Assembly: GCA_020523885.1 (NCBI GenBank)
Contig: JAJAPY010000008.1
Span: 20,872-84,871 of the forward strand
Reading direction: 5' to 3'
DNA: 64,000 nucleotides
Source of the DNA: Candidatus Liberimonas magnetica
GTDB taxonomy: Bacteria; Elusimicrobiota; Endomicrobiia; Endomicrobiales; JAFGIL01
Shown here: positions 4,324 through 63,381 of the stretch, piece by piece
Layout: every line of letters starts with the position of its first letter
How positions within the stretch are numbered: the first letter of the stretch is position 1
Position numbers and translations under genes: made by a program
The notes under the pieces: model-generated
Seen by the model: only the letters and a program-made list of their open reading frames with translations
What the model was told of the DNA's origin: nothing
Database searches by the model: none

Positions 4324-5304
4324 ATGGACGCATGGGAAAAATTCAAAATAGCAATAAAAAAAGACGGCCTTGTGAATGAAGGAGACAGGATAATTTTAGC
4401 TGTCTCAGGCGGGCCGGATTCTGTTTGTCTGACGCACCTTTTCTGGAGGCTGGCAAAGGCCCTGGATTTAGAACTGGTGATCGTTTATTTTGACCACGGC
4501 TTGAGAGTACAGGCAAAGAAAGAAATATTTTTTATTAAAAAGTTAGGCGGAAAACTAAATATACCGGTACAAGTCCGGGTATTGAAAGTAAAAGAACATT
4601 CAAGCCAAAATAAAGTATCTATAGAGACCGCAGGCAGGGATCTGCGTTATCAGGAACTGGATAATGTCGCAAAGGAATTGAAGTTCAATAAAATCGTGAC
4701 AGGGCACAATGCAAATGACAATGCGGAAACTGTCCTTATGTGGCTGATCCGGGGGACCGGGGCAGAGGGACTCTCAGGTATACCTCCCAAGCGCAAAACA
4801 AAAGGGAACATTGAGGTTATCAGGCCGATTTTATCTGTAACAAGAAAAGAGATATTAACTTATCTCAAACGCCAGAAGATGTTTTTTTGCATAGACCGTT
4901 CAAATTTTGACATTGACTATACAAGAAATAAGATAAGGCACGAGCTTATCCCAATGTTAAACAAATATAATAGTAACGTAGTAGAGCATCTTTATAATCT
5001 TTCAAGAATAGTTTCCCGTGAAAATACGTATTTAAATATGCTTTCACAAAAGGCGCAAAAGAATCTGGTTTCGGTATCAAAAAACAAAATCTCACTTGAT
5101 TTAAAAGGATTTTTTGGATATAATAAGGCAATACAAAATCGAATTATAAAAAATATTTTGCCGCAGAAACGGTCGCAACTCCAAATTGAACGTTTAATGG
5201 ATTTTTTGTCCGCCCCTCATAAAAAAAATATTCATTTTTCCAGTAATTGGGAAATAGAGAAGTCCCCCGGGAAACTGGTAATAAAAAAGTTAGTGCAGGC
5301 ATAA
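4324..5304 (+). CDS. tilS: tRNA(Ile)-lysidine synthetase
   Basis: PP-loop SGGPDS (LAVSGGPDSVCL). Conserved tilS-hpt-ftsH order. Confidence 0.9.
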   Translation: MDAWEKFKIAIKKDGLVNEGDRIILAVSGGPDSVCLTHLFWRLAKALDLELVIVYFDHGLRVQAKKEIFFIKKLGGKLNIPVQVRVLKVKEHSSQNKVSIETAGRDLRYQELDNVAKELKFNKIVTGHNANDNAETVLMWLIRGTGAEGLSGIPPKRKTKGNIEVIRPILSVTRKEILTYLKRQKMFFCIDRSNFDIDYTRNKIRHELIPMLNKYNSNVVEHLYNLSRIVSRENTYLNMLSQKAQKNLVSVSKNKISLDLKGFFGYNKAIQNRIIKNILPQKRSQLQIERLMDFLSAPHKKNIHFSSNWEIEKSPGKLVIKKLVQA

Positions 5305-52246: not shown

Positions 52247-52435
52247 CCTGAAAACTATGTTAACACAACGACTTAGCATAAGGCTTTTTCTGTTTGCAAT
52301 TAACGCCTTATCTCAACATCCCAGAAGGCCTATATACTTTCCCGTATTTCATGCCAAGGGACTCCAGCATTTGGATTTTGATGATAAGTATTAAGCCTAT
52401 TATCTAACTCCTTTTTTTATTCTTCTGATAATTGT

Positions 52436-52494
52436 ACCATAAAAAATCAGCGGATTTGCCTTTGGCAAATCCGCTGGATTGTTTTGTTAGAGTA
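52436..52494 (-). repeat. attC, distal-most in the array, with a degenerate outer core
   Basis: CCATAAAAAATCAGCGGATTTGCC-TTT-GGCAAATCCGCTGGATTGTTTTGTTAGAG. 13-bp perfect stem. Confidence 0.8.
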
Positions 52495-52500
52495 TTTATA

Positions 52501-52734
52501 TTATTTCCCGATTTCATATAGAAAATCAGGTGAGAAGTCCGCATTGTTTGGCCATACAATCGTATCTATATCTTTATTCAATCTAACCTTTCTAAAATAA
52601 GAAATATTTTTTAGTGGTTTAAATACTTTCCCTTCAAGATGATTTTTTAAATCAACAACTTTTGTTTTTCTGTTTCCAAATACTATTTTTAATTTGTAAT
52701 CTTCAAGATAGTCAAAATCTTTAATCCAGTACAT
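52501..52734 (-). CDS. DUF2442 family protein (cassette 15)
   Basis: ATG at 52734 behind GGAGGT. Partner of the upstream DUF4160 gene. Confidence 0.7.
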   Translation of the reverse strand: MYWIKDFDYLEDYKLKIVFGNRKTKVVDLKNHLEGKVFKPLKNISYFRKVRLNKDIDTIVWPNNADFSPDFLYEIGK

Positions 52735-52745
52735 ATAAATACCTC

Positions 52746-53006
52746 CTAAACCAATGGCTTTATTTTCTTTAAAATATCGTGCTTTTGAGCACGTTCCCAA
52801 TCCTCAAGCAACTCTTTTCTGTGTTCAAATGCCCACTCCAAAACAAGAGAAACGATTCTTTTTGGTAATTTCCCTTCAATAATTTCTAAATCATTTATAG
52901 AAAATGCAGCTCTTTTTCCTGCATATTTTGCATGGAAATGAGGGGGAGCATGCTCTTTAAAGTACATTGATATAATAATTCCTAAAAACCTACTAATCTC
53001 TGGCAT
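52746..53006 (-). CDS. DUF4160 family protein (cassette 15)
   Basis: MPEISRFLGIIISMYFKEHAPPHFHA signature. Confidence 0.8.
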   Translation of the reverse strand: MPEISRFLGIIISMYFKEHAPPHFHAKYAGKRAAFSINDLEIIEGKLPKRIVSLVLEWAFEHRKELLEDWERAQKHDILKKIKPLV

Positions 53007-53053
53007 CGTTTATATCCTTTCATGTTCTATTATAGCAGATTTACTTACATTTT

Positions 53054-53085
53054 TCTAACGCATTTTTTGTATTGATTTGTTAGAT
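53054..53085 (-). repeat. attC relic with cores only (TCTAAC-N19-GTTAGAT) and no stem
   Basis: Read directly. Too short (32 nt) for a functional attC. Confidence 0.5.
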
Positions 53086-53280
53086 AATTTTATTAAATTG
53101 CCACTCTGCGATTGTAAATTCGTTTATATGAAAACCGCATTTAATTGCAGCAGAAAGCCAATTAATCTGTGTTTGTCTGATTTTGTCTTTGGATTTCCAT
53201 TTTGACTCAATGAATTTAATATCAGAACCTTTCCAGCAAAATAAATCAAAAGCGCTATGCGTGCTTTTTGCCAAAATCAC
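53080..53280 (-). CDS. Mini VRR-NUC-like protein (cassette 14)
   Basis: DLFCWKGSDIKFIESKWKSKDKIRQTQINWLSAAIKCGF resembles the D..(E)xK ... Q..W core of VRR-NUC. GTG start inside the upstream attC. Confidence 0.35.
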   Translation of the reverse strand: MILAKSTHSAFDLFCWKGSDIKFIESKWKSKDKIRQTQINWLSAAIKCGFHINEFTIAEWQFNKII

Positions 53281-53323
53281 CTGCCGTGCGGAGCACGGTC
53301 AGGTGGATTGCTTTGTTAGAAAT
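53268..53323 (-). repeat. attC
   Basis: CACCTGCCGTGC-GGA-GCACGGTCAGGTG stem with one bulge, then GATTGCTTTGTTAGAA. Confidence 0.75.
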
Positions 53324-53339
53324 TTATTTGTTGTTCTAT

Positions 53340-53645
53340 TCAATATAAAGATAACTGGTTTTTTTCGTGATGAATAGTAGAAAATGCTCGGCTGGTTGTC
53401 TGATTAAGGGTTAATTTCTCGTACAATGTTTCAGGGGCAATATCTACGCCATTAGGCCAGGCTATTGTGCCGCCGTCAATAGTTGCTTTTTTGAAGATTC
53501 GCATATCTTTTAATGCTTTAAATACAGGGCCTCTATTTATATAATCTGAAAAATCTATATCGCCTTTTGTTCCGTCATCAAATACGATATGGTAAATATA
53601 GTTGCTCTTGTATTTAATTTTTTTAACTTCATTCATATTCCACAT
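53340..53645 (-). CDS. DUF2442 family protein (cassette 13)
   Basis: Diverged paralogue of 52501-52734. Downstream of a DUF4160 gene. Confidence 0.7.
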
Positions 53646-53653
53646 GTTTCACC

Positions 53654-53914
53654 TCATTTTAATGGGGCAATTTTCTTTATTTCTTTGCCGGCTTTTGATA
53701 GTTTCCAATCCGCTTCAAGTTCTGTTACATGAATGTCGATCCAATCTCTGATAAGTTTTCTTGCAGTTTTGGATTGTATGTTTCCTTTGAGTATGTTTCC
53801 CTGTAGATCAAAAACGGCTTTTTCACTTTGATATTCCGCATGCAAATGCGGCGGATTATGCTCATAATAGAACATTCTTATTACAATTCCAAAAAATTTA
53901 GAAATTATCGGCAT
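53654..53914 (-). CDS. DUF4160 family protein (cassette 13)
   Basis: MPIISKFFGIVIRMFYYEHNPPHLHA signature. Confidence 0.8.
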   Translation of the reverse strand: MPIISKFFGIVIRMFYYEHNPPHLHAEYQSEKAVFDLQGNILKGNIQSKTARKLIRDWIDIHVTELEADWKLSKAGKEIKKIAPLK

Positions 53915-53965
53915 TTATATCTCCTATCTCTTTGTTAATTTATTATAGCAAATTTTATTAGATTT

Positions 53966-54022
53966 TTCTAACACTACAGTATTTGTGCAAAAGGGGACGT
54001 CCCCTAAGCCCCTGTGTTTTTT
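53966..54022 (-). repeat. Variant attC with 14-nt palindrome AGGGGACGTCCCCT
   Basis: Plus strand TTCTAACACTACAG...AGGGGACGTCCCCTAAGCCCCTGTGTTTTTT. AACAC/GTGTT outer pairing. Confidence 0.6.
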
Positions 54023-54676
54023 ATTAATCAGCTAATAGTATTTCTCTATCCCACCAAAGCCTATTTGCTTGTTTTCTTTTGTCTTTGCAATAAAATTTGT
54101 AAGTCTCTTTTGAAATTCTTCTGGGCGATTCCGCGCTGCTTCAATGTAAGCAATACGTATTCTTCTATATGAGTCGGAAAACCTGTGATAATTCTCCCAT
54201 GCCAAATGATCGCTTTTTATTGCATTAATTATATCTGGAGAGAAAATAAACTTCTCGTCAATAATCCTTTTCGCAATATCTAGTATTGATGGATGCAGTA
54301 AATTCTCCTTAAGAAGCCATTTTAACCTCTCTTTGTTAGCTTGTGAGTAACCACTCTTGGGGTTTCTTGGTGAGAATCTTTGTGCGCTACTATTTTCGCT
54401 AACAGATTTCAGTTGGCTATCAATCCAGCCGAAACACAAAGCTTCTTCCACAGCGTCGTTATATGATATACGCGGTTTTCCTGAAGACTTGTTTGGATAG
54501 ACCAGCCAGACCTCTTTCTCTTTACTAGAGTTTAGTTCAAGCCATGCACGCCAGTCTTTTCTGTTGACTACATACAGCGTTTTAAGTTTATCCACAATAA
54601 CAACCATTCTGCGTTAACTAACCTAACTCAGGCACAAAAAGCTATCGCTATTTTCTTTCCAACATCCGAAATCAGC
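53998..54676. repeat. 679-bp direct repeat, copy 1 (YdeI cassette)
   Basis: Offset of exactly 4046 bp to 58044-58722. The encoded proteins are identical. One mismatch seen (54009 C vs 58055 T). Confidence 0.85.
54032..54607 (-). CDS. YdeI/OmpD-associated family protein, copy 1 (cassette 12)
   Basis: WRAWLE...VWLVY...ISYNDAVEEALCFGWIDS...RFSPRNPKSGYS pattern. Confidence 0.75.
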   Translation of the reverse strand: MVVIVDKLKTLYVVNRKDWRAWLELNSSKEKEVWLVYPNKSSGKPRISYNDAVEEALCFGWIDSQLKSVSENSSAQRFSPRNPKSGYSQANKERLKWLLKENLLHPSILDIAKRIIDEKFIFSPDIINAIKSDHLAWENYHRFSDSYRRIRIAYIEAARNRPEEFQKRLTNFIAKTKENKQIGFGGIEKYY

Positions 54677-54718
54677 GGAATTGCCAGAGGCAATTTCCGC
54701 TGTATTGATTTGTTAGAA
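54657..54718 (-). repeat. attC
   Basis: CCAACATCCGAAATCAGCGGAATTGCC-AGA-GGCAATTTCCGCTGTATTGATTTGTTAGAA, with one extrahelical T. Confidence 0.85.
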
Positions 54719-54767
54719 AATTTATTGTCGTATAGTTCAAATTGTTAAATTTAACGAATACCGTATT

Positions 54768-54810
54768 ACCTAACTACGTCCCCTAAGTCCGCTGGATTGT
54801 TTTGTTAGTA
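54768..54810 (-). repeat. Chimeric/short attC
   Basis: ACCTAACTACGTCCCCTAAGTCCGCTGGATTGTTTTGTTAGTA. It has the standard right half but no CAGCGG partner arm. Confidence 0.55.
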
Positions 54811-54830
54811 TTTAGATTCTATTTCTATCA

Positions 54831-55079
54831 TTATAAGGCAACTTTATGCAGTATCTCAGATATAAACGTTTGATATTTAACGCCTATATTTCTTGCTTTT
54901 TGTTTTATGCTTTCAAGGTCATGACTATTAATTCTTATGTTTAATACCGAATCTTTCTTTCTTCTGGCTATAGCTTGCGAGATAACATGAAAATCTTGCT
55001 TGTTGACAGGAGTATAAGTTCCTTCTAAAAGGTCTTTTTCAATTTCTTTTTCTTGTAAATTTAATTTTATTCTTTTCAT
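54831..55079 (-). CDS. CopG/BrnA-like antitoxin (cassette 10)
   Basis: C-terminal RHH-like IRINSHDLESIKQKARNIGVKYQTFISEILHK. 4-nt overlap with the toxin gene. Confidence 0.65.
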   Translation of the reverse strand: MKRIKLNLQEKEIEKDLLEGTYTPVNKQDFHVISQAIARRKKDSVLNIRINSHDLESIKQKARNIGVKYQTFISEILHKVAL

Positions 55080-55333
55080 TTGTTTGCTCCTTTAAATATT
55101 TTGGTATATTTTCTACTGGGGTAAAGAGTTTTGAGAAAATAGTAGTTTTCTTCTTCTACAAAAGGGACTACCCATATGTATTTTTTATATTCAAACAGCA
55201 TTATCTTTTGGTTCTCTTTGATCGGATGTCTCAATATGTTAATAAGCTTTGAATTAACTAACTCATCAAAAGAAACGCCTCTGGTTTTTATTAATCTTTC
55301 ATTTTTAAGCAAGTTCCAGCGAAGTTCTTTCAT
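55076..55333 (-). CDS. BrnT-like (DUF497-related) toxin (cassette 10)
   Basis: KNERLIKTRGVSFDEL ... VVPFV ... FLKTLYPSRK pattern. Confidence 0.55.
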   Translation of the reverse strand: MKELRWNLLKNERLIKTRGVSFDELVNSKLINILRHPIKENQKIMLFEYKKYIWVVPFVEEENYYFLKTLYPSRKYTKIFKGANK

Positions 55334-55391
55334 TGTTTTAATTGTAGCATATTACAAATGTATATACAATATGTAATTCAATATAATTTTA

Positions 55392-55451
55392 TGCTAACAT
55401 AAAAAATCAGCAGCTCCGACCGAAGCGTCGGAGTCGGCTGTATTGTTAGAA
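55392..55451 (-). repeat. attC
   Basis: GCTAACATAAAAAATCAGCAGCTCCGAC-CGAAGC-GTCGGAGTCGGCTGTATTGTTAGAA. Confidence 0.8.
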
Positions 55452-55492
55452 ATTTAATTGTTGTTATCTTAATATCTTAAGACCGCCCCTAG

Positions 55493-55963
55493 TTACTCGT
55501 GACCTTCTTTCCCTATTCTCCTTTGTAAAAGTCTTTCAAACACGGCCGCGGTAGTAGCGATTACAACAGAGACAAAAATCATAAAGAGACCCAAAGCAAC
55601 ACCACCCGCTATGTCATCCTTGCCGCGCACAGCTATAAATAGGTAGGCTTCTGCAGCTACAATAAAACCAACAAGAGATATCGCACAGTATTCTATTGTA
55701 CGTAAAGCTCTCACGGATTTTAGTGAGAATACTTTATTTTGTCCGAGGTATCCGAGCAACACAAACGATTGATATAACGCCACGAAAAATGAAATGGACG
55801 CTATATACGCATACGCCAGAAAAGGATCTTTAAAGTAAATCTCAAAGAGCGTGGCGTGCACGTTCCTGCCCTCAATATGGGGTTCCCAAAGCATAAAGGC
55901 AAGAGCGCCGATGCCGATGACTACAATGATTACCTGAAGAAATATTGTTGAGTTCTTTTTCAT
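55493..55963 (-). CDS. Four-TM membrane protein, possibly DUF2975-like (cassette 9)
   Basis: Hydrophobicity pattern. The family call is tentative. Confidence 0.5.
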   Translation of the reverse strand: MKKNSTIFLQVIIVVIGIGALAFMLWEPHIEGRNVHATLFEIYFKDPFLAYAYIASISFFVALYQSFVLLGYLGQNKVFSLKSVRALRTIEYCAISLVGFIVAAEAYLFIAVRGKDDIAGGVALGLFMIFVSVVIATTAAVFERLLQRRIGKEGHE

Positions 55964-55982
55964 AGATAGTTTTTATAGGATA

Positions 55983-56042
55983 TCTTAACATAAAAAATCA
56001 GCTGCCCGCCTTGAGTGGGTCAGCTGTATTGACTTGATAATA
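55983..56042 (-). repeat. attC with a degenerate ORF-proximal core (GATAATA)
   Basis: TCTTAACATAAAAAATCAGCTGCCCGCC-TTGA-GTGGGTCAGCTGTATTGACTTGATAATA. Confidence 0.7.
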
Positions 56043-56060
56043 TAAGGGCAATTAATTCTA

Positions 56061-56273
56061 TTAAGCAGCCCATTTGAATAGAAGTTTTTTGTGCGAATGA
56101 GCACATTCGCTAAGATACAAATTAATTAAATTTTGGTATGGCATTCCATACTCATTTGCTAAACCCTTGAAATAACTAATGGTTTCATGGTCAAGACGAA
56201 TGGTAATTTGTTTTTTCAGTTTTTTGAAGTATGGATTCTTTGTTGCATTGCTAAAATCGTATTGTTTATTCAT
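56061..56273 (-). CDS. brnA: BrnA antitoxin (cassette 8)
   Basis: ITIRLDHETISYFKGLANEYGMPYQNLINLYL pattern. 4-nt overlap with brnT. Confidence 0.75.
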   Translation of the reverse strand: MNKQYDFSNATKNPYFKKLKKQITIRLDHETISYFKGLANEYGMPYQNLINLYLSECAHSHKKLLFKWAA

Positions 56274-56563
56274 GACAATTTCTCCTTATATTGTTTTTGT
56301 TCTTTTTTGTTTGCTTTTCTAGCTGAAATAATTCTAATTATCTCATCATCTTTTCTATAGCAATGGCAAACAACTAACAATCGTAAAATACGGCTTACGC
56401 CAAGCATAATAAAACGGTCTTCATGGTCAGAATGTGATGGATCATGTATCAATAAAGCATTGGGGTCATAAAATATTGTTTTTGCTTCTTCAAAAGATAT
56501 TCCATGTTTCTTTTTATTGCTATTATCTTTTTTCTTGTCCCATTCAAATTCAATGTGCTTCAT
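56270..56563 (-). CDS. brnT: BrnT toxin (DUF497) (cassette 8)
   Basis: FEWDKKKDNSNKKKHGISFEEAKTIFYDP ... IRIISARKANKKEQKQY. Confidence 0.8.
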   Translation of the reverse strand: MKHIEFEWDKKKDNSNKKKHGISFEEAKTIFYDPNALLIHDPSHSDHEDRFIMLGVSRILRLLVVCHCYRKDDEIIRIISARKANKKEQKQYKEKLS

Positions 56564-56598
56564 AATTATATTGTAATTATATTCTAATTATTTGTCAA

Positions 56599-56659
56599 GT
56601 CTAACATCCGAAATAAGCTACTCGACCTGAAGGGGAGGGTCAGCTGTATTGTGTTAAAT
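56599..56659 (-). repeat. attC
   Basis: GTCTAACATCCGAAATAAGCTACTCGACC...GGGAGGGTCAGCTGTATTGTGTTAAAT. The stop of the upstream ORF lies in the core. Confidence 0.75.
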
Positions 56660-57370
56660 ATCAGTTTCTTTTGATTTTATAAATTCATAAAATTGATAAC
56701 TAAAACTTGTGTATGCAAAACCAGTACCTAAATCCTGGCTTTTTCTATATTCTCCAAGCTCGTATTTATACCATTCTGTTGTAGAACTAAATATTCCTAA
56801 GGATTTCATTTCTTCTATGGCAGAATCAACTAAATAGGGCTCAAAGACATTTTTCAAATTATTTATTATTCTACGTTTATCAATTTGTACAGGTTGGCAA
56901 GAGCTTTTATTAAGATATTTTATTAATGGTTCTCTATAAACTTTATCAATTTCTATTAAAACTAATACAGCAGAACAAGACATGTTTCTTAGAATATCAA
57001 TAAATTTCAATTTTTTCATAATTGGTATCTTTTTATTATTAATGCCGTTTATCAGTGCGTTTACAAATAATTCTTGCTTTTCTTCTATTTGTGCATCCAT
57101 CGCAGAAGCAAAGATTTTATTTACAAATAAGTTGCCATCCTTAGTTTTTAACCATTTGTCACATAATAATTTCTTTACATCGGCAACTTTTAATTCTAAA
57201 TGATTTGTAAATGTTTTAGCATTTCTATCAAATACGTGTTTTTTAAATACATCATAGCCCAATACTATTGGTAATAAAATAGGATATTCCGATAGCAATA
57301 CTGTCCTTGAAACAGTTTTTAAAGAATTAAAGAGACTTTTTGTTTGTTTTGTTATTTTTAGTTTTGTCAT
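56654..57370 (-). CDS. Hypothetical protein, possibly Abi_alpha/DUF4393-like (cassette 7)
   Basis: ATG at 57370, just outside the attC. FASAMDAQIEEKQELFVNALINGIN ... FIDILRNMSCSAVLVL resembles the DUF4393 pattern. Confidence 0.35.
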   Translation of the reverse strand: MTKLKITKQTKSLFNSLKTVSRTVLLSEYPILLPIVLGYDVFKKHVFDRNAKTFTNHLELKVADVKKLLCDKWLKTKDGNLFVNKIFASAMDAQIEEKQELFVNALINGINNKKIPIMKKLKFIDILRNMSCSAVLVLIEIDKVYREPLIKYLNKSSCQPVQIDKRRIINNLKNVFEPYLVDSAIEEMKSLGIFSSTTEWYKYELGEYRKSQDLGTGFAYTSFSYQFYEFIKSKETDI

Positions 57371-57371
57371 T

Positions 57372-57434
57372 TCTTTACATAAAAAATCAGCGGATTTTGC
57401 CGAAGGCAAATTCCGCTGTATTGATTTGTTATCT
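57372..57434 (-). repeat. attC
   Basis: TCTTTACATAAAAAATCAGCGGATTTTGCC-GAA-GGCAAATTCCGCTGTATTGATTTGTTATCT. Confidence 0.8.
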
Positions 57435-57436
57435 TT

Positions 57437-57700
57437 TTATTTGCCTAATAGTCGTTCGTATTCGGAATGTGAACCAATCCAAAACCAAATAATACCTTCT
57501 TTCTCTGGAATACTAACACCTAATGCTCTTATATACAAGCTTGAACGTACTGACCAATATTTACCAATTCGTTTTAGTCGTAATGAAGGATGTTTAGGAT
57601 TATTTTTAAGAAGTTCAAAACTTGTGTTTGCAGAGTTTTTTTCTGTTGCAGATAGCTTGATATAAAATTCCCAGAATGCCGGTGACGTGAAATGTTTCAT
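57437..57700 (-). CDS. RelE/ParE-superfamily toxin (cassette 6)
   Basis: NPKHPSLRLKRIGKYWSVR...RALGV...WFWIGSHSEYERLL pattern. ATGA overlap with the antitoxin stop. Confidence 0.6.
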   Translation of the reverse strand: MKHFTSPAFWEFYIKLSATEKNSANTSFELLKNNPKHPSLRLKRIGKYWSVRSSLYIRALGVSIPEKEGIIWFWIGSHSEYERLLGK

Positions 57701-57894
57701 AATTCTTTGCATTTCCCTGCTTTGTAAGTATTCAATGCTTTTTCTGCAATTTGGTCCAATTTGCCTTTTGAAACATCTACTTCAATTTCTTTATCCCATT
57801 TATCTTCTTCGATTTTATGGAACCATTCTGATAAGGAAATTAATTCCTTTTCTTCAAGATGTTCAATTGCATTTTTAATTTCATTAATTGTCAT
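57697..57894 (-). CDS. Addiction-module antitoxin component (cassette 6)
   Basis: MTINEIKNAIEHLEEKELISLSEWF... small acidic helical protein. Start trimmed to Met 57894. Confidence 0.55.
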   Translation of the reverse strand: MTINEIKNAIEHLEEKELISLSEWFHKIEEDKWDKEIEVDVSKGKLDQIAEKALNTYKAGKCKEL

Positions 57895-57956
57895 AATAAC
57901 CTCCGAACATATAACATATTTCGTTATAAGTATAATCAATAATTATTTAATTTTCA

Positions 57957-58013
57957 AGATAACATCCGAAATCAGTGGTTTTGCGGAGCAAAATCCGCTG
58001 GATTGTGTTAGAA
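57957..58013 (-). repeat. attC
   Basis: AGATAACATCCGAAATCAGTGGTTTTGC-GGA-GCAAAATCCGCTGGATTGTGTTAGAA. Confidence 0.8.
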
Positions 58014-58043
58014 ATTTCATTGCTAAAGTTGTCAAGTTGACTT

Positions 58044-58722
58044 CGTCCCCTAAGTCCCTGTGTTTTTTATTAATCAGCTAATAGTATTTCTCTATCCCAC
58101 CAAAGCCTATTTGCTTGTTTTCTTTTGTCTTTGCAATAAAATTTGTAAGTCTCTTTTGAAATTCTTCTGGGCGATTCCGCGCTGCTTCAATGTAAGCAAT
58201 ACGTATTCTTCTATATGAGTCGGAAAACCTGTGATAATTCTCCCATGCCAAATGATCGCTTTTTATTGCATTAATTATATCTGGAGAGAAAATAAACTTC
58301 TCGTCAATAATCCTTTTCGCAATATCTAGTATTGATGGATGCAGTAAATTCTCCTTAAGAAGCCATTTTAACCTCTCTTTGTTAGCTTGTGAGTAACCAC
58401 TCTTGGGGTTTCTTGGTGAGAATCTTTGTGCGCTACTATTTTCGCTAACAGATTTCAGTTGGCTATCAATCCAGCCGAAACACAAAGCTTCTTCCACAGC
58501 GTCGTTATATGATATACGCGGTTTTCCTGAAGACTTGTTTGGATAGACCAGCCAGACCTCTTTCTCTTTACTAGAGTTTAGTTCAAGCCATGCACGCCAG
58601 TCTTTTCTGTTGACTACATACAGCGTTTTAAGTTTATCCACAATAACAACCATTCTGCGTTAACTAACCTAACTCAGGCACAAAAAGCTATCGCTATTTT
58701 CTTTCCAACATCCGAAATCAGC
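58044..58722. repeat. 679-bp direct repeat, copy 2 (YdeI cassette)
   Basis: See 53998-54676. Confidence 0.85.
58078..58653 (-). CDS. YdeI/OmpD-associated family protein, copy 2 (cassette 5)
   Basis: The 191-aa product is identical to 54032-54607. Confidence 0.75.
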   Translation of the reverse strand: MVVIVDKLKTLYVVNRKDWRAWLELNSSKEKEVWLVYPNKSSGKPRISYNDAVEEALCFGWIDSQLKSVSENSSAQRFSPRNPKSGYSQANKERLKWLLKENLLHPSILDIAKRIIDEKFIFSPDIINAIKSDHLAWENYHRFSDSYRRIRIAYIEAARNRPEEFQKRLTNFIAKTKENKQIGFGGIEKYY

Positions 58723-58766
58723 TGCCCGACCCGAAGGGGCGGGTCAGCTGGATTGATTTGTTAGAT
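58703..58766 (-). repeat. attC
   Basis: TTCCAACATCCGAAATCAGCTGCCCGACCC-GAAG-GGGCGGGTCAGCTGGATTGATTTGTTAGAT. Confidence 0.8.
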
Positions 58767-58769
58767 GTT

Positions 58770-59396
58770 TTATTGGTTTCTTAAAATAAAATCTTGTATA
58801 CCTTGATACATAATTTTTACCTGCTCTAAAGTATATTCGTTAAAACAACCATGTGCTGCCTTATTTCTTAAGTCTAACCAGCTTGTTATTGATTTTTGGT
58901 CCAGTTTAGAGTAAGCATTAGCTTTATACAGTTCTGCATTCATTGTATCTGCTTTTATGGGTTTATCATTTTGTGTTGTTGGAATATTGTTTGTGCTACA
59001 TAATAACCTAAGTTTTTCTTCTAATACTGCACCGACAATAACAGCCGCAGGGTCTTTGTAACTATTGTCTATTAAATACTGGGACATTTCTAAAAAATCA
59101 GTAAATATATCTCCTTGAACTATTGTTTCAACTGTTTTTAAATATCCAGCTTCATAGTCTGCTCGCAAAGCTTTTAAAGCACCAACAATAAATGCTGGAC
59201 TAAATTCTATTTGACTTCTGTATGGCGATCCTTTTGGAGCTATTCTCGTTAGGCATGATGTTAATCTTACTCTTACCTCTGTTTTAACAGCATCCTCTAA
59301 ATCAGAAAGATCATCATATTTTGCTTTTTTCCTATACTCTTCATAAAAAAGTAATAATGAACTAATTTCATCAATAATCTTCTTTGCATTTATCAT
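58770..59396 (-). CDS. HEPN-domain protein (DUF4145-like C-terminus) (cassette 4)
   Basis: C-terminal PAAVIVGAVLEEKLRLL ... WLDLRNKAAHG (R-x4-H). About 110-aa helical N-domain. Confidence 0.55.
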   Translation of the reverse strand: MINAKKIIDEISSLLLFYEEYRKKAKYDDLSDLEDAVKTEVRVRLTSCLTRIAPKGSPYRSQIEFSPAFIVGALKALRADYEAGYLKTVETIVQGDIFTDFLEMSQYLIDNSYKDPAAVIVGAVLEEKLRLLCSTNNIPTTQNDKPIKADTMNAELYKANAYSKLDQKSITSWLDLRNKAAHGCFNEYTLEQVKIMYQGIQDFILRNQ

Positions 59397-59407
59397 TTTA
59401 ATTCCTC

Positions 59408-59465
59408 ATCTAACATCCAAGCTCAGCGGCGCCGGAACGGCGTCCGCTGTAGCGTTTTGTTAAAC
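59408..59465 (-). repeat. attC
   Basis: ATCTAACATCCAAGCTCAGCGGCGCCG-GAA-CGGCGTCCGCTGTAGCGTTTTGTTAAAC. Confidence 0.8.
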
Positions 59466-59489
59466 TCTTTTAGCCCAATTAACGAAAAT

Positions 59490-60098
59490 CTACTTTTGTT
59501 CACTAGGATTAATAATATCTAATACTTTAAATTCTGTATATTTTAGTTTTTCTACTTTTTCGGGTTTGTTTGATGTTAATAATAAATTATAATAATTTAA
59601 TGTAATTATATCATTAGGTTCAATAAACTCATACGGCAAATCAACTGTTACCATATACTTATTGTCTTTAGTAAAATATATAAACCTTCCAGTAGGTTCA
59701 AGTTCTATCGTTTTTTCTTTAATAAGATCATAATAAGCTAATGTTTCTATTTTTAGTTTTCCACCATAGGTAAAATGCTGTGAAAATAAAAAGTATCCTT
59801 TTTTATCTAGTGTTTCAAAAGCATCATGATATATAAGATAGCTATCCTTAAATTCTTCGTGTATTTTGTCATTTTCATAAATATTGTACTTTCTATATAC
59901 CATTGGATAATATTCTTTTCTATGTTTCTCCTTTGTGTTTCCATTCCATATAATTTCATAATCGATTATTAATGGTTTTACATCATTTAAATTTACATTA
60001 GGATGATTAATTTTAGTAACTTGTCCACCAATTATTGAATCAGCCGATATAAAATGCACATTAAATAAAATTACCAAAAAGGTGATAAATATTCTCAT
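59490..60098 (-). CDS. Secreted protein, unknown function (cassette 3)
   Basis: Signal peptide MRIFITFLVILFNVHFISA. No family recognised. Confidence 0.6.
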   Translation of the reverse strand: MRIFITFLVILFNVHFISADSIIGGQVTKINHPNVNLNDVKPLIIDYEIIWNGNTKEKHRKEYYPMVYRKYNIYENDKIHEEFKDSYLIYHDAFETLDKKGYFLFSQHFTYGGKLKIETLAYYDLIKEKTIELEPTGRFIYFTKDNKYMVTVDLPYEFIEPNDIITLNYYNLLLTSNKPEKVEKLKYTEFKVLDIINPSEQK

Positions 60099-60125
60099 AT
60101 TCTTTCTTTCTCCATTTTTTCATTT

Positions 60126-60195
60126 GTTTAACATCCGAAATCAGCGGTTTTGGCACGCGCAGCGTGACAAAATCCGCTGGATTGACTTGTTAGAA
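60126..60195 (-). repeat. attC, longest at 70 nt
   Basis: GTTTAACATCCGAAATCAGCGGTTTTGGCACGCGCAGCGTGACAAAATCCGCTGGATTGACTTGTTAGAA. Confidence 0.8.
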
Positions 60196-60275
60196 TATTT
60201 ATTGCTTTTTAAGCTAAACTAATCAACTAACCCCGCCCACTATTATTTAAGGTTTCGAATTAAACAAAACTTATT

Positions 60276-60800
60276 TCACATTTCTCTGCCGTATATAAGG
60301 GTATCGTAAGGATTTGTATCAAGTTTTCCCATAGATCGTTTATAGGCTATACAAGCGGAAGGAGAGTTGAATTGTTTATGAATAACAACATACTTGTTTT
60401 GTCCATTTGTATCCATAAAAGCATAAGTTGGCTTTGCGTTGGTGTTAGTATTATAGGATAGTAATGCTATTTTGGTTTGATAGCGATTATTTGTTACTGG
60501 ATAATTTTCAAAGCTATCTTTTATTGTATATAAATGTGTATAAGTTATGGTTGTTGGAGCTTTTATCCAAGAATCGTAAGCTGTTTGTGTGGATTTAATT
60601 ACTATATATACTTCTATTAAATCTGTATTTTTATCGAATCCTTTTGATAAATAAAATTCAAATGGATTTGCGTCTGCATATCCTGAAAATGTTTCTGAAT
60701 AAGCTACGGACGGAATCCCTTTTTCACCATCTTTACCTTTCAACTGGTCGCACCCACAGAAAACCATTGAACAAATCACAATAGCCCAAAAATACCGCAT
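60276..60800 (-). CDS. Probable lipoprotein/exported protein, unknown function (cassette 2)
   Basis: MRYFWAIVICSMVFCGC leader. ATG at 60800. Confidence 0.55.
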   Translation of the reverse strand: MRYFWAIVICSMVFCGCDQLKGKDGEKGIPSVAYSETFSGYADANPFEFYLSKGFDKNTDLIEVYIVIKSTQTAYDSWIKAPTTITYTHLYTIKDSFENYPVTNNRYQTKIALLSYNTNTNAKPTYAFMDTNGQNKYVVIHKQFNSPSACIAYKRSMGKLDTNPYDTLIYGREM

Positions 60801-60815
60801 TTTTTCTCCTCCTTT

Positions 60816-60879
60816 TTCTAACATCCGAAATCAGCGGCCCGACCCGCAGGGGAGGGTCAGCTGGATTGACTTGTTATAT
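60816..60879 (-). repeat. attC
   Basis: TTCTAACATCCGAAATCAGCGGCCCGACCC-GCAG-GGGAGGGTCAGCTGGATTGACTTGTTATAT. Confidence 0.8.
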
Positions 60880-60888
60880 TGGTAGTAT

Positions 60889-61614
60889 TTATGACAAATC
60901 TCTGTATAAAATATGTAATACTTCCAGTGCTATTTTGGCTTCCTCGGTGTCAAATGTTAACTTGTCTCGAATTTCTCGCCCAGGATGTACTAAATTACGG
61001 TATTCACGTAAAGAGTGTGACAATTTTTCAATTCCTGAACTTACTAATTTTAAATCTACGCTGACATTTATTAAATCTGAAAAATCCCATTTTGTGATAT
61101 CAGGCTTATTAGGTGCTTGTGATGAACTCTTTGCCGATGATTCATTAACCAAGAGTAGGTCCATTAATATTGCTTCTATTGAGCCACCCGAAAGTATAAT
61201 GACTGATTTCCAGCACTCTGATACATAAGCTCTTTGTATTTCTAAATAATCTCTTTCAAGTATTTTTCTTAGTTCTGTATTACTAATGAAAGAAAATTCT
61301 TTTAATTCAGTTATTGGAGTTTGAGTAGGTTCGTCAATCGCTACTTTTAATCTTGATATGGCAGTTGATAGATACGAACGAACCCCGGTACGGTTGTATA
61401 TTAGATTTCCAGCTTCGTCAACTTTGTAATACTCTTGAGGGTTAAATGATGGTAATAATTTGGGGAACGAACTATCGATTTCCTTTAATTCTTTAATTAG
61501 AACATTAGCAGGATAAGCAGAAATATAAATACCTCTTTCTTCTTCAATAACTTTTTGCTGCCCTAGAAGAGAATGATAATATTGTCGCAATTGTTTTAAT
61601 TCAATTTTGGTCAT
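60889..61614 (-). CDS. HEPN-like protein (cassette 1, attI-proximal)
   Basis: C-terminal CWKSVIILSGGSIEAILMDLL ... LSHSLREYRNLVHPG (R-x6-H / RN..H). AGGAG RBS 7 nt upstream. Confidence 0.5.
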   Translation of the reverse strand: MTKIELKQLRQYYHSLLGQQKVIEEERGIYISAYPANVLIKELKEIDSSFPKLLPSFNPQEYYKVDEAGNLIYNRTGVRSYLSTAISRLKVAIDEPTQTPITELKEFSFISNTELRKILERDYLEIQRAYVSECWKSVIILSGGSIEAILMDLLLVNESSAKSSSQAPNKPDITKWDFSDLINVSVDLKLVSSGIEKLSHSLREYRNLVHPGREIRDKLTFDTEEAKIALEVLHILYRDLS

Positions 61615-61630
61615 TAAATTCTCCTTTGCT

Positions 61631-61646
61631 ATATAACAGTTATTAT
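61631..61646 (-). other. Candidate attI simple site (ATATAAC-A-GTTATTA; minus strand G|TTATAT core)
   Basis: Imperfect palindrome 17 nt upstream of the first cassette ATG. Same GTTATAT core as attC 60873-60879. Confidence 0.45.
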
Positions 61647-61688
61647 ACGTAATGCCTGTTTATTTTTTGTTTCGACCTTTATAGCGGT

Positions 61689-61717
61689 ATTTTACTATTT
61701 TAAATAAGTAAATGCAA
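61689..61717 (-). promoter_or_regulatory. Candidate cassette promoter Pc, TTGCAT-17-TAAAAT (minus strand)
   Basis: -35 at 61712-61717 and -10 at 61689-61694, reverse-complement reading. Confidence 0.4.
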
Positions 61718-61745
61718 AGAATTATTACATTAGTAATAAATACAT

Positions 61746-61775
61746 TTGACAACAACTGGATAAATAACATACAAT
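61746..61775 (+). promoter_or_regulatory. Candidate PintI, TTGACA-18-TACAAT
   Basis: -35 at 61746-61751 and -10 at 61770-61775, about 55 nt upstream of the intI ATG. Confidence 0.45.
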
Positions 61776-61830
61776 AGCACAAAATACGAAACGCTGGATA
61801 TTGAATATATTTAATAAATCGAGGTTTTTT

Positions 61831-63159
61831 ATGGACAAAACAATTTTGCCGGAATTTCAGGCGTTTTTGTTGTTAAAAAGGCTTGTGAAAGAAAAAAGTG
61901 TGAGTTATTATGCGTCTTGGGTAAGCAAATTCATTGGATTTTCTAACACAAATGAAAAACTTAATGATACAGGAAGCATAGATTCTTTGATAGGCGAGTT
62001 TATAAGCTCTCTTGGCAACGGGAACAAAATTGAAGAGTGGCAGTTGCAGCAGGCAAGGGACGCAGTAAATCTGTATATCAACAATTATCTCAAAGGTGAC
62101 ACTTCAAGCGTCCTGCCAAACAGAACGCTTGAAATGCTGCATGCTGCTATGGATTATTCAGGTGTACTTAACCGCATGAAAACTGCTTTAGAAGTAAAAC
62201 ACTACGCTTATAAAACGGAACGGTCGTACCTGGACTGGGCTAAAAGATTTTTTGAGTATGTATCTAAAACAAACAGAAAAGATGCGGCAATCAGCGCGAT
62301 AAGCCAGAATGATGTAAAGGACTATTTAACCCATTTGGCGCTGCATCATAAAGTTGCCGCTTCGACACAAAACCAGGCTTTTAACGCTCTTCTTTTTCTT
62401 TTAAAAAACGTGCTTGATGCGGACACAAACGATCTTGCTAAAACTGTGCGCGCCAAACGCGGCCCAAAACTTCCTGTTGTGTTGAGTGTTGAAGAGGTGC
62501 AGAAGCTGCTTGACGGGATGGAAGGGGAAAACAAGCTTATAGCCCAGCTTCTGTATGGTGCTGGCTTGAGGCTTATGGAAGTAGCGCGCTTAAGGGTAAA
62601 AGACATTGATTTTTCATCGAATTTGCTGTTTGTGCGTAGTGCCAAGGGTGATAAAGACAGAACAACTGTTTTGCCGGGAATGATTAAGGAAGACTTGCAG
62701 CTGCAACTTCAAAAAGTGAAAGAGCTGCATGAGAAAGATATCGCGCTAGGGCACGGTGAGGTTTATATGCCCGATGCCTTAAGCAGAAAATATCCCAATG
62801 CAGGGAAAACCATTGGCTGGCAGTATGTGTTTCCGGCAGCAAAGCTTTCGGTTGATCCGCGCTCCGCTAAGGTGAGGCGTCATCATATTGGCGAAAAATC
62901 AATCCAAATTGCAATTCAAAAAGCAGTCAGGAATGCAGGTATTGTTAAACCCGCCTCTGTGCACACCCTGCGCCACAGCTTTGCAACGCATCTATTGTTG
63001 AACGGAACTAACGTTCGCCAGATACAAGACCTGCTTGGACATAAACACCTTGAAACAACTATGATATACACCCATGTTGTACGCAACATGTACAATGCTC
63101 CACAAAGCCCGCTGGATGTGCTGCAGAATAAATTAAAAAGTGAAAATAAACAAAGTTAA
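61831..63159 (+). CDS. intI: Integron integrase with extended N-terminus (two SAM-like N-domains)
   Basis: Collinear with IntI1 through ALSRKYPNAGKTIGWQYVFPAAKLSVDPRSAKVRRHHI (IntI-specific segment), HTLRHSFATHLL and LLGHKHLETTMIYTHV. ATG at 61831 behind GAGG. Confidence 0.9.
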   Translation: MDKTILPEFQAFLLLKRLVKEKSVSYYASWVSKFIGFSNTNEKLNDTGSIDSLIGEFISSLGNGNKIEEWQLQQARDAVNLYINNYLKGDTSSVLPNRTLEMLHAAMDYSGVLNRMKTALEVKHYAYKTERSYLDWAKRFFEYVSKTNRKDAAISAISQNDVKDYLTHLALHHKVAASTQNQAFNALLFLLKNVLDADTNDLAKTVRAKRGPKLPVVLSVEEVQKLLDGMEGENKLIAQLLYGAGLRLMEVARLRVKDIDFSSNLLFVRSAKGDKDRTTVLPGMIKEDLQLQLQKVKELHEKDIALGHGEVYMPDALSRKYPNAGKTIGWQYVFPAAKLSVDPRSAKVRRHHIGEKSIQIAIQKAVRNAGIVKPASVHTLRHSFATHLLLNGTNVRQIQDLLGHKHLETTMIYTHVVRNMYNAPQSPLDVLQNKLKSENKQS

Positions 63160-63225: not shown

Positions 63226-63381
63226 ATGATACGTCAAAAAGGAAGCCATACTTTTTGGGAACACAATGATGGCAGATGTACGGTGGTCCCTATTCATAAG
63301 GGCAAGGATATCGGAAGAGGTTTATTGAAAAGTATTTTAAACGATATAGATATTGAAACGGAAAATTTTTTTAAATTATAA
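63226..63381 (+). pseudogene. N-terminally truncated HicA-like toxin remnant (51 codons)
   Basis: MIRQKGSHTFWEHNDGRCTVVPIHKGKDIGRGLLKSILNDIDI matches the HicA core from GSH onward. The N-terminal ~20 aa are missing. Confidence 0.5.

Follow-up and report, generated by a model that had tools for sequence, protein, structure and literature searches.

We analysed a 64,000-nucleotide stretch of the Candidatus Liberimonas magnetica genome (hereafter the window; GenBank assembly GCA_020523885.1, contig JAJAPY010000008.1, positions 20,872 to 84,871), in which the cassette of an integron nearest to its attI site (cassette 1) carries a single open reading frame (ORF) for a 241-residue protein. The protein has two domains and belongs to a large unnamed family. 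Its C-terminal domain probably belongs to the HEPN superfamily, and the best explanation that we can offer, held with moderate confidence as a whole, is that this domain is a divergent HEPN member closest to the DUF4145/RiboL-PSP-HEPN branch. For the complete protein, we give an even chance to its being a stand-alone two-domain conflict protein, in which a HEPN-type ribonuclease (RNase) effector would be coupled to a family-specific N-terminal regulator.

The full-length AlphaFold2 (AF2) model, built from a 42-sequence alignment, has a mean predicted local distance difference test (pLDDT) score of 86.8 and contains two confidently predicted domains, the arrangement of which relative to each other is uncertain (predicted TM score, pTM, of 0.56). 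The N-terminal α/β domain (residues 1–104) contains no cysteines, resembles nothing known and is joined to the C-terminal domain by a conserved linker, TPVTE-x-R-x-FSF. When the C-terminal domain was modelled alone, the confidence was high (pLDDT of 87.3 and pTM of 0.82), and the predicted helices (residues 113–131, 135–156, 193–206 and a kinked 213–240), together with an insert at residues 157–192, form the arrangement by which a HEPN domain is recognized, a four-helix up-down core whose helices 2 and 3 are separated by an insert. A first-pass annotation of the window had proposed a HEPN layout for the C-terminal ~100 residues, to be abandoned if structure prediction gave no HEPN four-helix bundle, and had left the N-terminal ~130 residues unassigned. 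The HEPN helical bundle is present in the C-domain model and the HEPN-like character is upheld by the evidence given below, although the domain is longer than had been thought, at ~135 residues (residues ~105–241), and the unassigned N-terminal part is correspondingly only ~100 residues long. The two strings that it had placed in the first and last helices, SVIILSGGSIEAILMDLL and LREYRNLVHPG, are both present and are among the best-conserved positions of the family; the former (SVIIL...) lies in helix 2 of the domain, which is preceded by the helix at residues 113–131.

The C-terminal domain is not confined to this architecture: it recurs after other N-termini in proteins of 280–540 residues, including one type with a DUF2321 zinc ribbon. 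A profile search with the N-terminal domain returned only seven truncated copies of the same protein family and no fusion to an alternative effector, in a search of doubtful sensitivity given that it did not list the full-length family members.

Four independent lines of evidence (Pfam, structure, profile–profile comparison and conserved residues) are concordant on HEPN and lend it moderate support, each being modest and none individually decisive. In Pfam, DUF4145 (PF13643, HEPN clan CL0291) is matched by 26 of 42 family members at E ≤ 1, with a best E-value of 2.4e-4, and essentially nothing else is matched; the family consensus and seven of eight further members also match it. The matched region is constant, covering residues ~124–218 and profile positions 2–77 of 88, from helix 2 through the R...H motif. 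In a Foldseek search of the PDB with the C-domain model, HEPN proteins made up 14 of the 21 top matches, with TM-scores of 0.42–0.59 and probabilities of up to 0.85. They comprise HepT toxins (7bxo, 6m6w, 6m6u and 5yep), Sulfolobus HEPN proteins (2q00 and 2jpu), YutE (1ylm), Csm6 (5yjc) and a HEPN toxin (7ae6 and 7ae8). HEPN proteins represent a tiny fraction of the PDB. The Foldseek searches of the PDB and of viral structures with the full-length model were uninformative, being swamped by long helical repeat proteins, a problem that was resolved by remodelling the C-terminal domain alone; 7bxo and 2q00 were the only compact matches in the full-length search.

The third line is a comparison with the family of a second HEPN protein of the same array, encoded in cassette 4. 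The C-domains aligned in hhalign with P = 0.0017 and a probability of only 15%, with the elements D-[YF]-x-E, [WY]-K, G-x3-E-x2-L, K-x-D, R-N and the Gly after the His in register and the His itself shifted by one residue. The full-length alignment is collinear through both domains (P = 0.016). Sequence (phmmer) and profile searches against all PDB chains retrieved no HEPN chain at E ≤ 10, and matches to a DEAD-like helicase, myosin VI and FAM118B were dismissed as chance-level. Likewise, searches with P0255 and with a profile of the cassette-4 family retrieved no HEPN or RAZR chain from the PDB.

The conserved residues supply the fourth line. Over 269 family proteins, conservation reaches 100% for D122 and E147, 99% for K136, G143 and H210, 98% for R206, N207 and E225, and 96% for R203. 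In the AF2 models R203...H210 spans the end of the third core helix (residues 200–206) and the start of the next loop, and E147 lies in the second core helix (residues 135–156); the reference analysis of HEPN proteins puts the Rx4-6H motif and an acidic residue of helix 2 at these same positions (PMC3710099). An Rx4-6H spacing is satisfied by the upstream R203 alone, as Rx6H. The proven catalytic pair of the antiphage protein RAZR, R146/H154, is likewise widely spaced (PMC13017515).

The family is large. Homologues of the 241-residue protein number 492 at E ≤ 1e-3, and the best 120 of these are all ~240 residues long and near full-length matches with 51–67% identity, with neither a Pfam domain nor an informative name. 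A profile search of 1.84 billion representatives clustered at 50% identity returned 3,989 sequences at E ≤ 1e-3, 2,314 at E ≤ 1e-10 and 215 at E ≤ 1e-30. In a pattern-limited scan of one genome per species, 24 loci, all of them in metagenome-assembled genomes (MAGs) and with 37–66% identity to the query, were confirmed among 185,579 species genomes. Their hosts belong to the deltaproteobacteria/Syntrophaceae/Geobacter, Chloroflexota/Dehalococcoidia, Elusimicrobiota, Acidobacteriota, Myxococcales, Saccharibacteria, Nitrospirota, Zixibacteria, WOR-3, Gemmatimonadetes and Binatia, and one metagenomic homologue has archaeal-looking neighbours. The family is mobile and patchily distributed over more than ten phyla. 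Three of the 24 genome loci (L012, L025 and L029) hold copies disrupted by in-frame stops or frameshifts, which suggests gene turnover. Against plasmids and phages, tblastn found only 'hypothetical' relatives of the C-terminal domain with 25–32% identity.

No neighbour family occurs in more than three of 25 loci, so that a conserved neighbour or partner is not seen, and no IntI is encoded in the sequence flanking the first 30 homologues retrieved (loci L001–L030). Individual contexts are varied. One homologue lies downstream of a Type ISP restriction–modification (R-M) enzyme and a helicase, beside an integrase fragment; another belongs to an island that also encodes MqsRA, a TIR protein, a Y1 transposase and a Phd antitoxin; the closest (67% identity) is flanked by a PIN pair and an MNT pair and has a small recombinase next to it; and a further one lies between tRNA genes and an integrase remnant with an insertion-sequence fragment. 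At L031/L032 a gene for a 124–133-residue protein without a Pfam match (4607..5008), downstream of the Type ISP R-M enzyme, has an 8-bp overlap with the start of the homologue; it was not seen at the other loci and could be a context-specific partner.

The locus L040/L041 represents a second, independent integron capture of the family. Here the homologue (61% identity) has attC hairpins of unrelated sequence on both sides, with folding z-scores of −3.8 to −8. In L040, on a metagenomic contig (GCA_004196315.1, SDBT01058293.1, 458..5004), a protein-kinase cassette comes after the homologue cassette, and directly upstream is a very short cassette that seems to be empty. With default filters, a covariance model of the attC sites of the window detected none in 37 foreign loci, a result that, the model being sequence-specific, is not evidence of absence; with the filters off it flagged L040/L041, where the attC hairpins were confirmed by manual inspection and folding.

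Within the window, the ORF (Table 1) has what is expected of an integron cassette: an IntI-specific integrase, a 3′ attC hairpin, a 5′ end complementary to the R″ box, and one promoterless ORF. The first-pass annotation had placed the ORF in the attI-proximal cassette, and this is borne out: intI is adjacent, an attC site lies at the 3′ end and, because there is no attC between the ORF and intI (nor any hairpin on folding of 61600–61700), the ORF belongs to cassette 1. The first bases of the cassette, TTATAT, complement the R″ box (ATATAAC) of the cassette's attC, which is expected of a cassette that circularizes, and cassette 2 follows the same rule (TTAGAA/TTCTAAC). The array contains 12 attC sites of one sequence family (52431..60878), identified by pattern search, alignment and the covariance model (52–77 bits); they fold into AAC...GTT hairpins with bulged bases and show compensatory stem changes across the 12-site alignment. 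The ORF is the sole credible gene of cassette 1. Neither a second credible ORF nor a tandem repeat or Rfam match was found in the cassette, in agreement with the earlier statement that no antitoxin-like ORF is adjacent; two antisense ORFs, at 60866..61228 and 60879..61064 (+), are contained entirely within conserved coding sequence of the opposite strand.

It is well established that transcription from the integron cassette promoter (Pc) is strongest at the attI-proximal position. From position only, strong expression of the cassette-1 gene from Pc would be expected. In a consensus scan, the candidate Pc was the only σ70-like candidate reading into cassette 1, and promoter-like sites in this region were no more numerous than in shuffled sequences.

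The way in which such a protein might work can be outlined. The C-terminal domain would be a metal-independent RNase, with an active site formed by R203/R206-N207-H210 and E147 and probably completed across a HEPN dimer interface. The ~100-residue N-terminal domain may be a regulatory or sensor part that holds the nuclease in check; a trigger, for instance a phage protein, would release or assemble it, and the ensuing cleavage of RNA would shut down translation and lead to aborted infection or growth arrest. The promoterless single-ORF cassette next to attI would be read from the integron cassette promoter. Since a putative nuclease is tolerated without an antitoxin in what is presumably the best-transcribed position, its regulation would be expected to act in cis. 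The abortive-infection part of the proposal draws on the analogy with RAZR and with validated HEPN cassettes (both discussed below) and on the defence and toxin–antitoxin (TA) island contexts of some homologues. Also in favour of the conflict-protein reading are the TA, Abi_alpha-like and second HEPN cassettes of the same array and the modular architecture of the family. An RNase with a role in abortive infection is plausible on these grounds, and we regard the case as evenly poised. A wider proposition is offered more tentatively, as a possibility: that the whole family (~4,000 clusters at 50% identity, in many bacterial phyla and probably in archaea) may consist of single-protein, trigger-activated abortive-infection RNases, in which a new N-terminal sensor is combined with a DUF4145-like HEPN domain having its loop compressed to RxxRNxxH, and which were taken up by at least two unrelated integrons in separate events.

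Several observations weigh against a HEPN RNase acting in conflict. Taken singly, none of the lines of HEPN evidence reaches significance at customary thresholds: the DUF4145 scores of the members and the consensus (13.9–19.4 bits) lie below the gathering threshold of 23.1 bits, the window protein itself has no Pfam match at E ≤ 1, DUF4145 included, the Foldseek E-values for the C-domain model are all greater than 0.1 and the hhalign probability is weak. The only other library match is a weak one to PHROG 1305, a 'DNA binding protein' (E = 8e-5). The 241-residue protein matches nothing in Pfam, NCBIfam or PADLOC, and the PADLOC check that the first-pass annotation had proposed came back empty, with no family matched at E ≤ 1. 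The RN dipeptide gives RNLVH, that is RNxxH (Rx3H), one residue short of the canonical RNxxxH. The motif loop (residues ~201–220) is the least confident part of both models, with pLDDT values of 52–67; the low values would fit the observation that the motif segment of HEPN domains is often non-helical and flexible (PMC3710099). Finally, the identity of the homologues across phyla exceeds what is usual for fast-evolving toxins, and several of them stand alone among housekeeping genes (aminoacyl-tRNA synthetase and folate genes).

Three other explanations were weighed, each of which is less well supported than the conflict-protein reading. One is that the C-terminal domain is not HEPN at all and is instead an unrelated helical bundle, perhaps used for DNA binding or scaffolding, in which the R...H string is coincidental. 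Spurious structural matches are common for helical bundles, and the subthreshold scores, the PHROG 1305 match and the noncanonical RNxxH spacing could all be accommodated in this way. However, the four independent methods converge on the HEPN superfamily and on no other, HEPN proteins account for two thirds of the top Foldseek matches (14 of 21) despite their tiny share of the PDB, and the conserved residues fall where helix 3 ends and in helix 2, the places that define HEPN domains (PMC3710099). The DUF4145 domain of RAZR, also only distantly HEPN-like, is moreover a proven RNase. We therefore consider an unrelated bundle to be improbable.

If the fold is accepted, the protein could still lack any role in conflict and act as a non-toxic accessory protein that processes RNA or binds nucleotides or RNA (for example tRNA or rRNA under stress) and was captured in a cassette by chance. 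This would sit well with the high conservation (37–66% identity across phyla), with the copies beside aminoacyl-tRNA synthetase or folate-biosynthesis genes and with the tolerance of the gene at the position presumed to be the most expressed; in addition, not all HEPN-clan domains are nucleases, some being substrate-binding domains of nucleotidyltransferases (PMC3710099). Such a protein would hardly be expected to show so patchy a distribution (24 loci in 185,579 species genomes in the pattern-limited scan), disrupted copies, no conserved neighbour and repeated linkage with integrases, R-M systems, TA genes and integron cassettes, and the 96–100% conservation of the catalytic-type R, N, H and E residues points to an enzyme. 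We think this explanation quite unlikely. A self-contained addiction or stabilization module, in which a HEPN-like toxin and a fused cis-acting N-terminal antitoxin penalize loss of the array or of a mobile island, would agree with the richness of the array in TA cassettes (BrnTA, DUF4160/DUF2442 twice and a CopG-like pair), with the occurrence of homologues among TA genes, with the lack of a separate antitoxin in cassette 1 and with the identity of the closest structural matches, HepT toxins from HEPN-MNT TA systems. Post-segregational killing nevertheless needs a separately made, unstable antidote, and a fused domain has no obvious differential decay; an MNT or other conserved partner is found in none of ~25 contexts, and many copies are solitary among housekeeping genes, where there is nothing to stabilize. 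An addiction module is thus unlikely, if not as remote as the other two explanations.

The features of cassette 1 and of the integron platform are collected in Table 1.

Table 1. Coordinates in the window of cassette 1, the protein that it encodes and the adjoining integron platform
Feature	Position	Strand	Basis and remarks
ORF, 241 residues, ATG start; two-domain protein of large unnamed family	60889..61614	-	Translation
N-terminal domain, residues 1–104, α/β	61303..61614	-	AF2: H3–25, E30–32, H33–49, E63–65, E71–74, H75–94
C-terminal HEPN-like (DUF4145-like) domain, residues 105–241, ~135 residues	60892..61302	-	AF2, Foldseek, DUF4145, hhalign
E147, invariant acidic position (helix 2 of the HEPN-like domain)	61174..61176	-	Conservation
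Putative catalytic motif R203-E-Y-R206-N207-L-V-H210-P-G212 (Rx6H with embedded RNxxH)	60979..61008	-	Translation
Shine–Dalgarno sequence AAGGAG	61621..61626	-	Sequence; 7 nt upstream of ATG
Gene cassette 1, 815 bp, single ORF	60822..61636	-	From the attI junction to the R′ box of attC1 (GTTAG, with its G at 60822)
attC of cassette 1	60815..60878	+ (= bottom strand)	Covariance-model match of 72.8 bits (model built from the 12 sites of the window, this one among them); hairpin; R″ ATATAAC and R′ GTTAGAA on - strand
attI/cassette-1 junction core GTTATAT, recombination point between G and TT	61631..61637	-	Sequence; cassette 1 starts at 61636
Candidate cassette promoter Pc	61689..61718	-	TTTGCA-18-TAAAAT, 9/12, a weak consensus match; between intI and attI, into cassette 1
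Candidate PintI promoter	61746..61775	+	TTGACA-18-TACAAT, 11/12, strong σ70-like consensus match only; towards intI
intI, integron integrase, 452 residues	61801..63159	+	TIGR02249, 406.4 bits (cut-off 265); tyrosine recombinase

The integrase gene is divergent from the cassette array, all cassette ORFs reading leftwards, away from intI. Its product contains Phage_integrase and two stretches of Phage_int_SAM_4 (PF13495). An additional N-terminal extension of ~120 residues (61801..62160, +) has the look of a second SAM-like domain, the TIGR02249 match beginning at residue 122. Just downstream of intI, a small ORF (63226..63381, +; MIRQKGSHTFWEHNDGRCTVVPIHKGKDIGRGLLKSIL...) resembles a HicA-type toxin by eye only.

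At 32.8%, the G+C content of the cassette array (52430..61636) is lower than that of intI (42%) and of the remaining window (~40%). Cassette 4 (58770..59396, -) encodes the second HEPN protein, of 208 residues, with a canonical RNKAAH motif and a sub-cut-off Pfam match to HEPN_RiboL-PSP (22.8 bits). Its family has 561 members, often with PF18735, one of which is named 'DUF4145 domain-containing' by NCBI, and the nearest named relatives are from Candidatus Omnitrophica MAGs. Another candidate defence cassette is represented by an ORF of 251 residues (56654..57409, -) with a subthreshold match to Abi_alpha (26.4 bits against a cut-off of 29). Cassettes of TA type, all on the - strand, encode BrnT/BrnA (56061..56563), two DUF4160/DUF2442 pairs (52501..53006 and 53340..53914) and a CopG-antitoxin-like pair (54831..55333). 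A cassette of the OmdA/YdeI family with a 191-residue ORF is present twice (53998..54676 and 58044..58722) with 99.85% identity over 679 bp, which suggests a recent duplication within the array. This content (TA pairs, an Abi_alpha-like protein and OmdA) is usual for a sedentary chromosomal integron.

The points of interest in cassette 1 are the size of the protein family, the undescribed N-terminal domain and the shortened catalytic loop. No new category is opened. If our interpretation is right, a widespread, unannotated family, missed entirely by Pfam, NCBIfam and PADLOC, would be added to the compact single-gene HEPN defence and toxin proteins, and a new sensor domain would become available, with a trigger to be searched for. 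As a natural shortening, the RNxxH loop would provide a test of how much variation in spacing a HEPN active site tolerates. Chromosomal integrons as stores of defence genes, known mainly from Vibrio, would be extended to a low-GC, uncultured-type lineage.

The closest functional parallel is RAZR (PD-T7-4), a ~25 kDa single protein in which a sensor domain is combined with a DUF4145-HEPN RNase; it does no harm until it is assembled by phage ring proteins, whereupon it cleaves RNA nonspecifically (PMC13017515). Its DUF4145 domain has been described as 'distantly homologous' to HEPN and is nevertheless a proven R/H-dependent RNase (PMC13017515). In the cassettes of chromosomal integrons, PD-T7-4 is one of the most frequent defence systems. 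The cassette-1 protein resembles RAZR in being a single polypeptide of ~25 kDa with a noncatalytic N-terminal part, a C-terminal divergent HEPN domain of DUF4145 type and no antitoxin gene, and in having the Arg and His further apart than in the textbook motif (R146/H154 in RAZR and R203/H210 here). In contrast, RAZR has a Cys4 zinc ribbon, whereas the N-terminal domain of the cassette-1 protein is α/β and cysteine-free, and the motif here is RxxRNxxH. Membership in RAZR/PD-T7-4 is ruled out by the lack of a zinc ribbon, of a PADLOC PD-T7-4 match and of a sequence match among PDB chains. When ten relatives with shuffled domains were searched with PADLOC, none matched PD-T7-4 and three gave weak, unrelated matches (Csm3 and REase_II).

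DUF4145 domains in general are fused to varied N-terminal modules and are found in R-M or defence operons (PMC3710099). DUF4145 is the only Pfam family matched by the cassette-1 family and varied N-terminal fusions are common to both, although the spacing from Asn to His is one residue shorter in the cassette-1 protein. The RiboL-PSP-HEPN-like family (PF18735) is similar in size (~210–240 residues) and layout, with an N-terminal region followed by a C-terminal HEPN domain, and both types are integron cassettes in this array. The two families have in common the pattern D-[YF]-x-E ... [WY]-K ... G-x3-E-x2-L ... K-x-D ... R-N ... H-G. They differ in that cassette 4 has RNKAAH whereas cassette 1 has RNLVH with an extra upstream Arg, identity is ~20% and the cassette-1 protein has no PF18735 match; a relationship between them is suggestive only.

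HepT proteins (7bxo, 5yep and 7ae6) are the best structural matches to the C-terminal domain, with TM-scores of 0.45–0.55. They are Rx4-6H RNases that act as dimers, and consist of a single domain of ~130 residues neutralized by an adjacent MNT nucleotidyltransferase, whereas the cassette-1 protein has an extra N-terminal domain. Membership in HEPN-MNT is ruled out, as there is no MNT gene in the cassette and none is conserved across 25 loci; where an MNT gene does occur near a homologue, in one case, it is encoded on the other strand and is paired with an upstream gene of its own. The 'Integron cassette HEPN' family (PDB entry 3jrt; Anantharaman et al., 2013) was likewise ruled out, with no sequence match and no place among the top 50 Foldseek matches, and the cassette-1 protein gave no Pfam match to Abi_C, AbiV or AbiU2.

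That integrons carry HEPN cassettes was a prediction of 2013, with validation following in 2024–2026. The validated single-gene examples include Esos, Taranis/AbiJ-like, AbiV and AbiU2-like cassettes, several of which have been shown to give phage protection by growth arrest or cell death. Cassette 1 is, like them, a single-gene integron cassette with a HEPN-like domain; they come from Vibrio and other gammaproteobacteria, whereas the cassette-1 gene is from a low-GC, uncultured-type genome. Because single-gene HEPN defence cassettes of integrons are already documented, the cassette-1 protein would be best regarded as a new, unannotated example of an established class.

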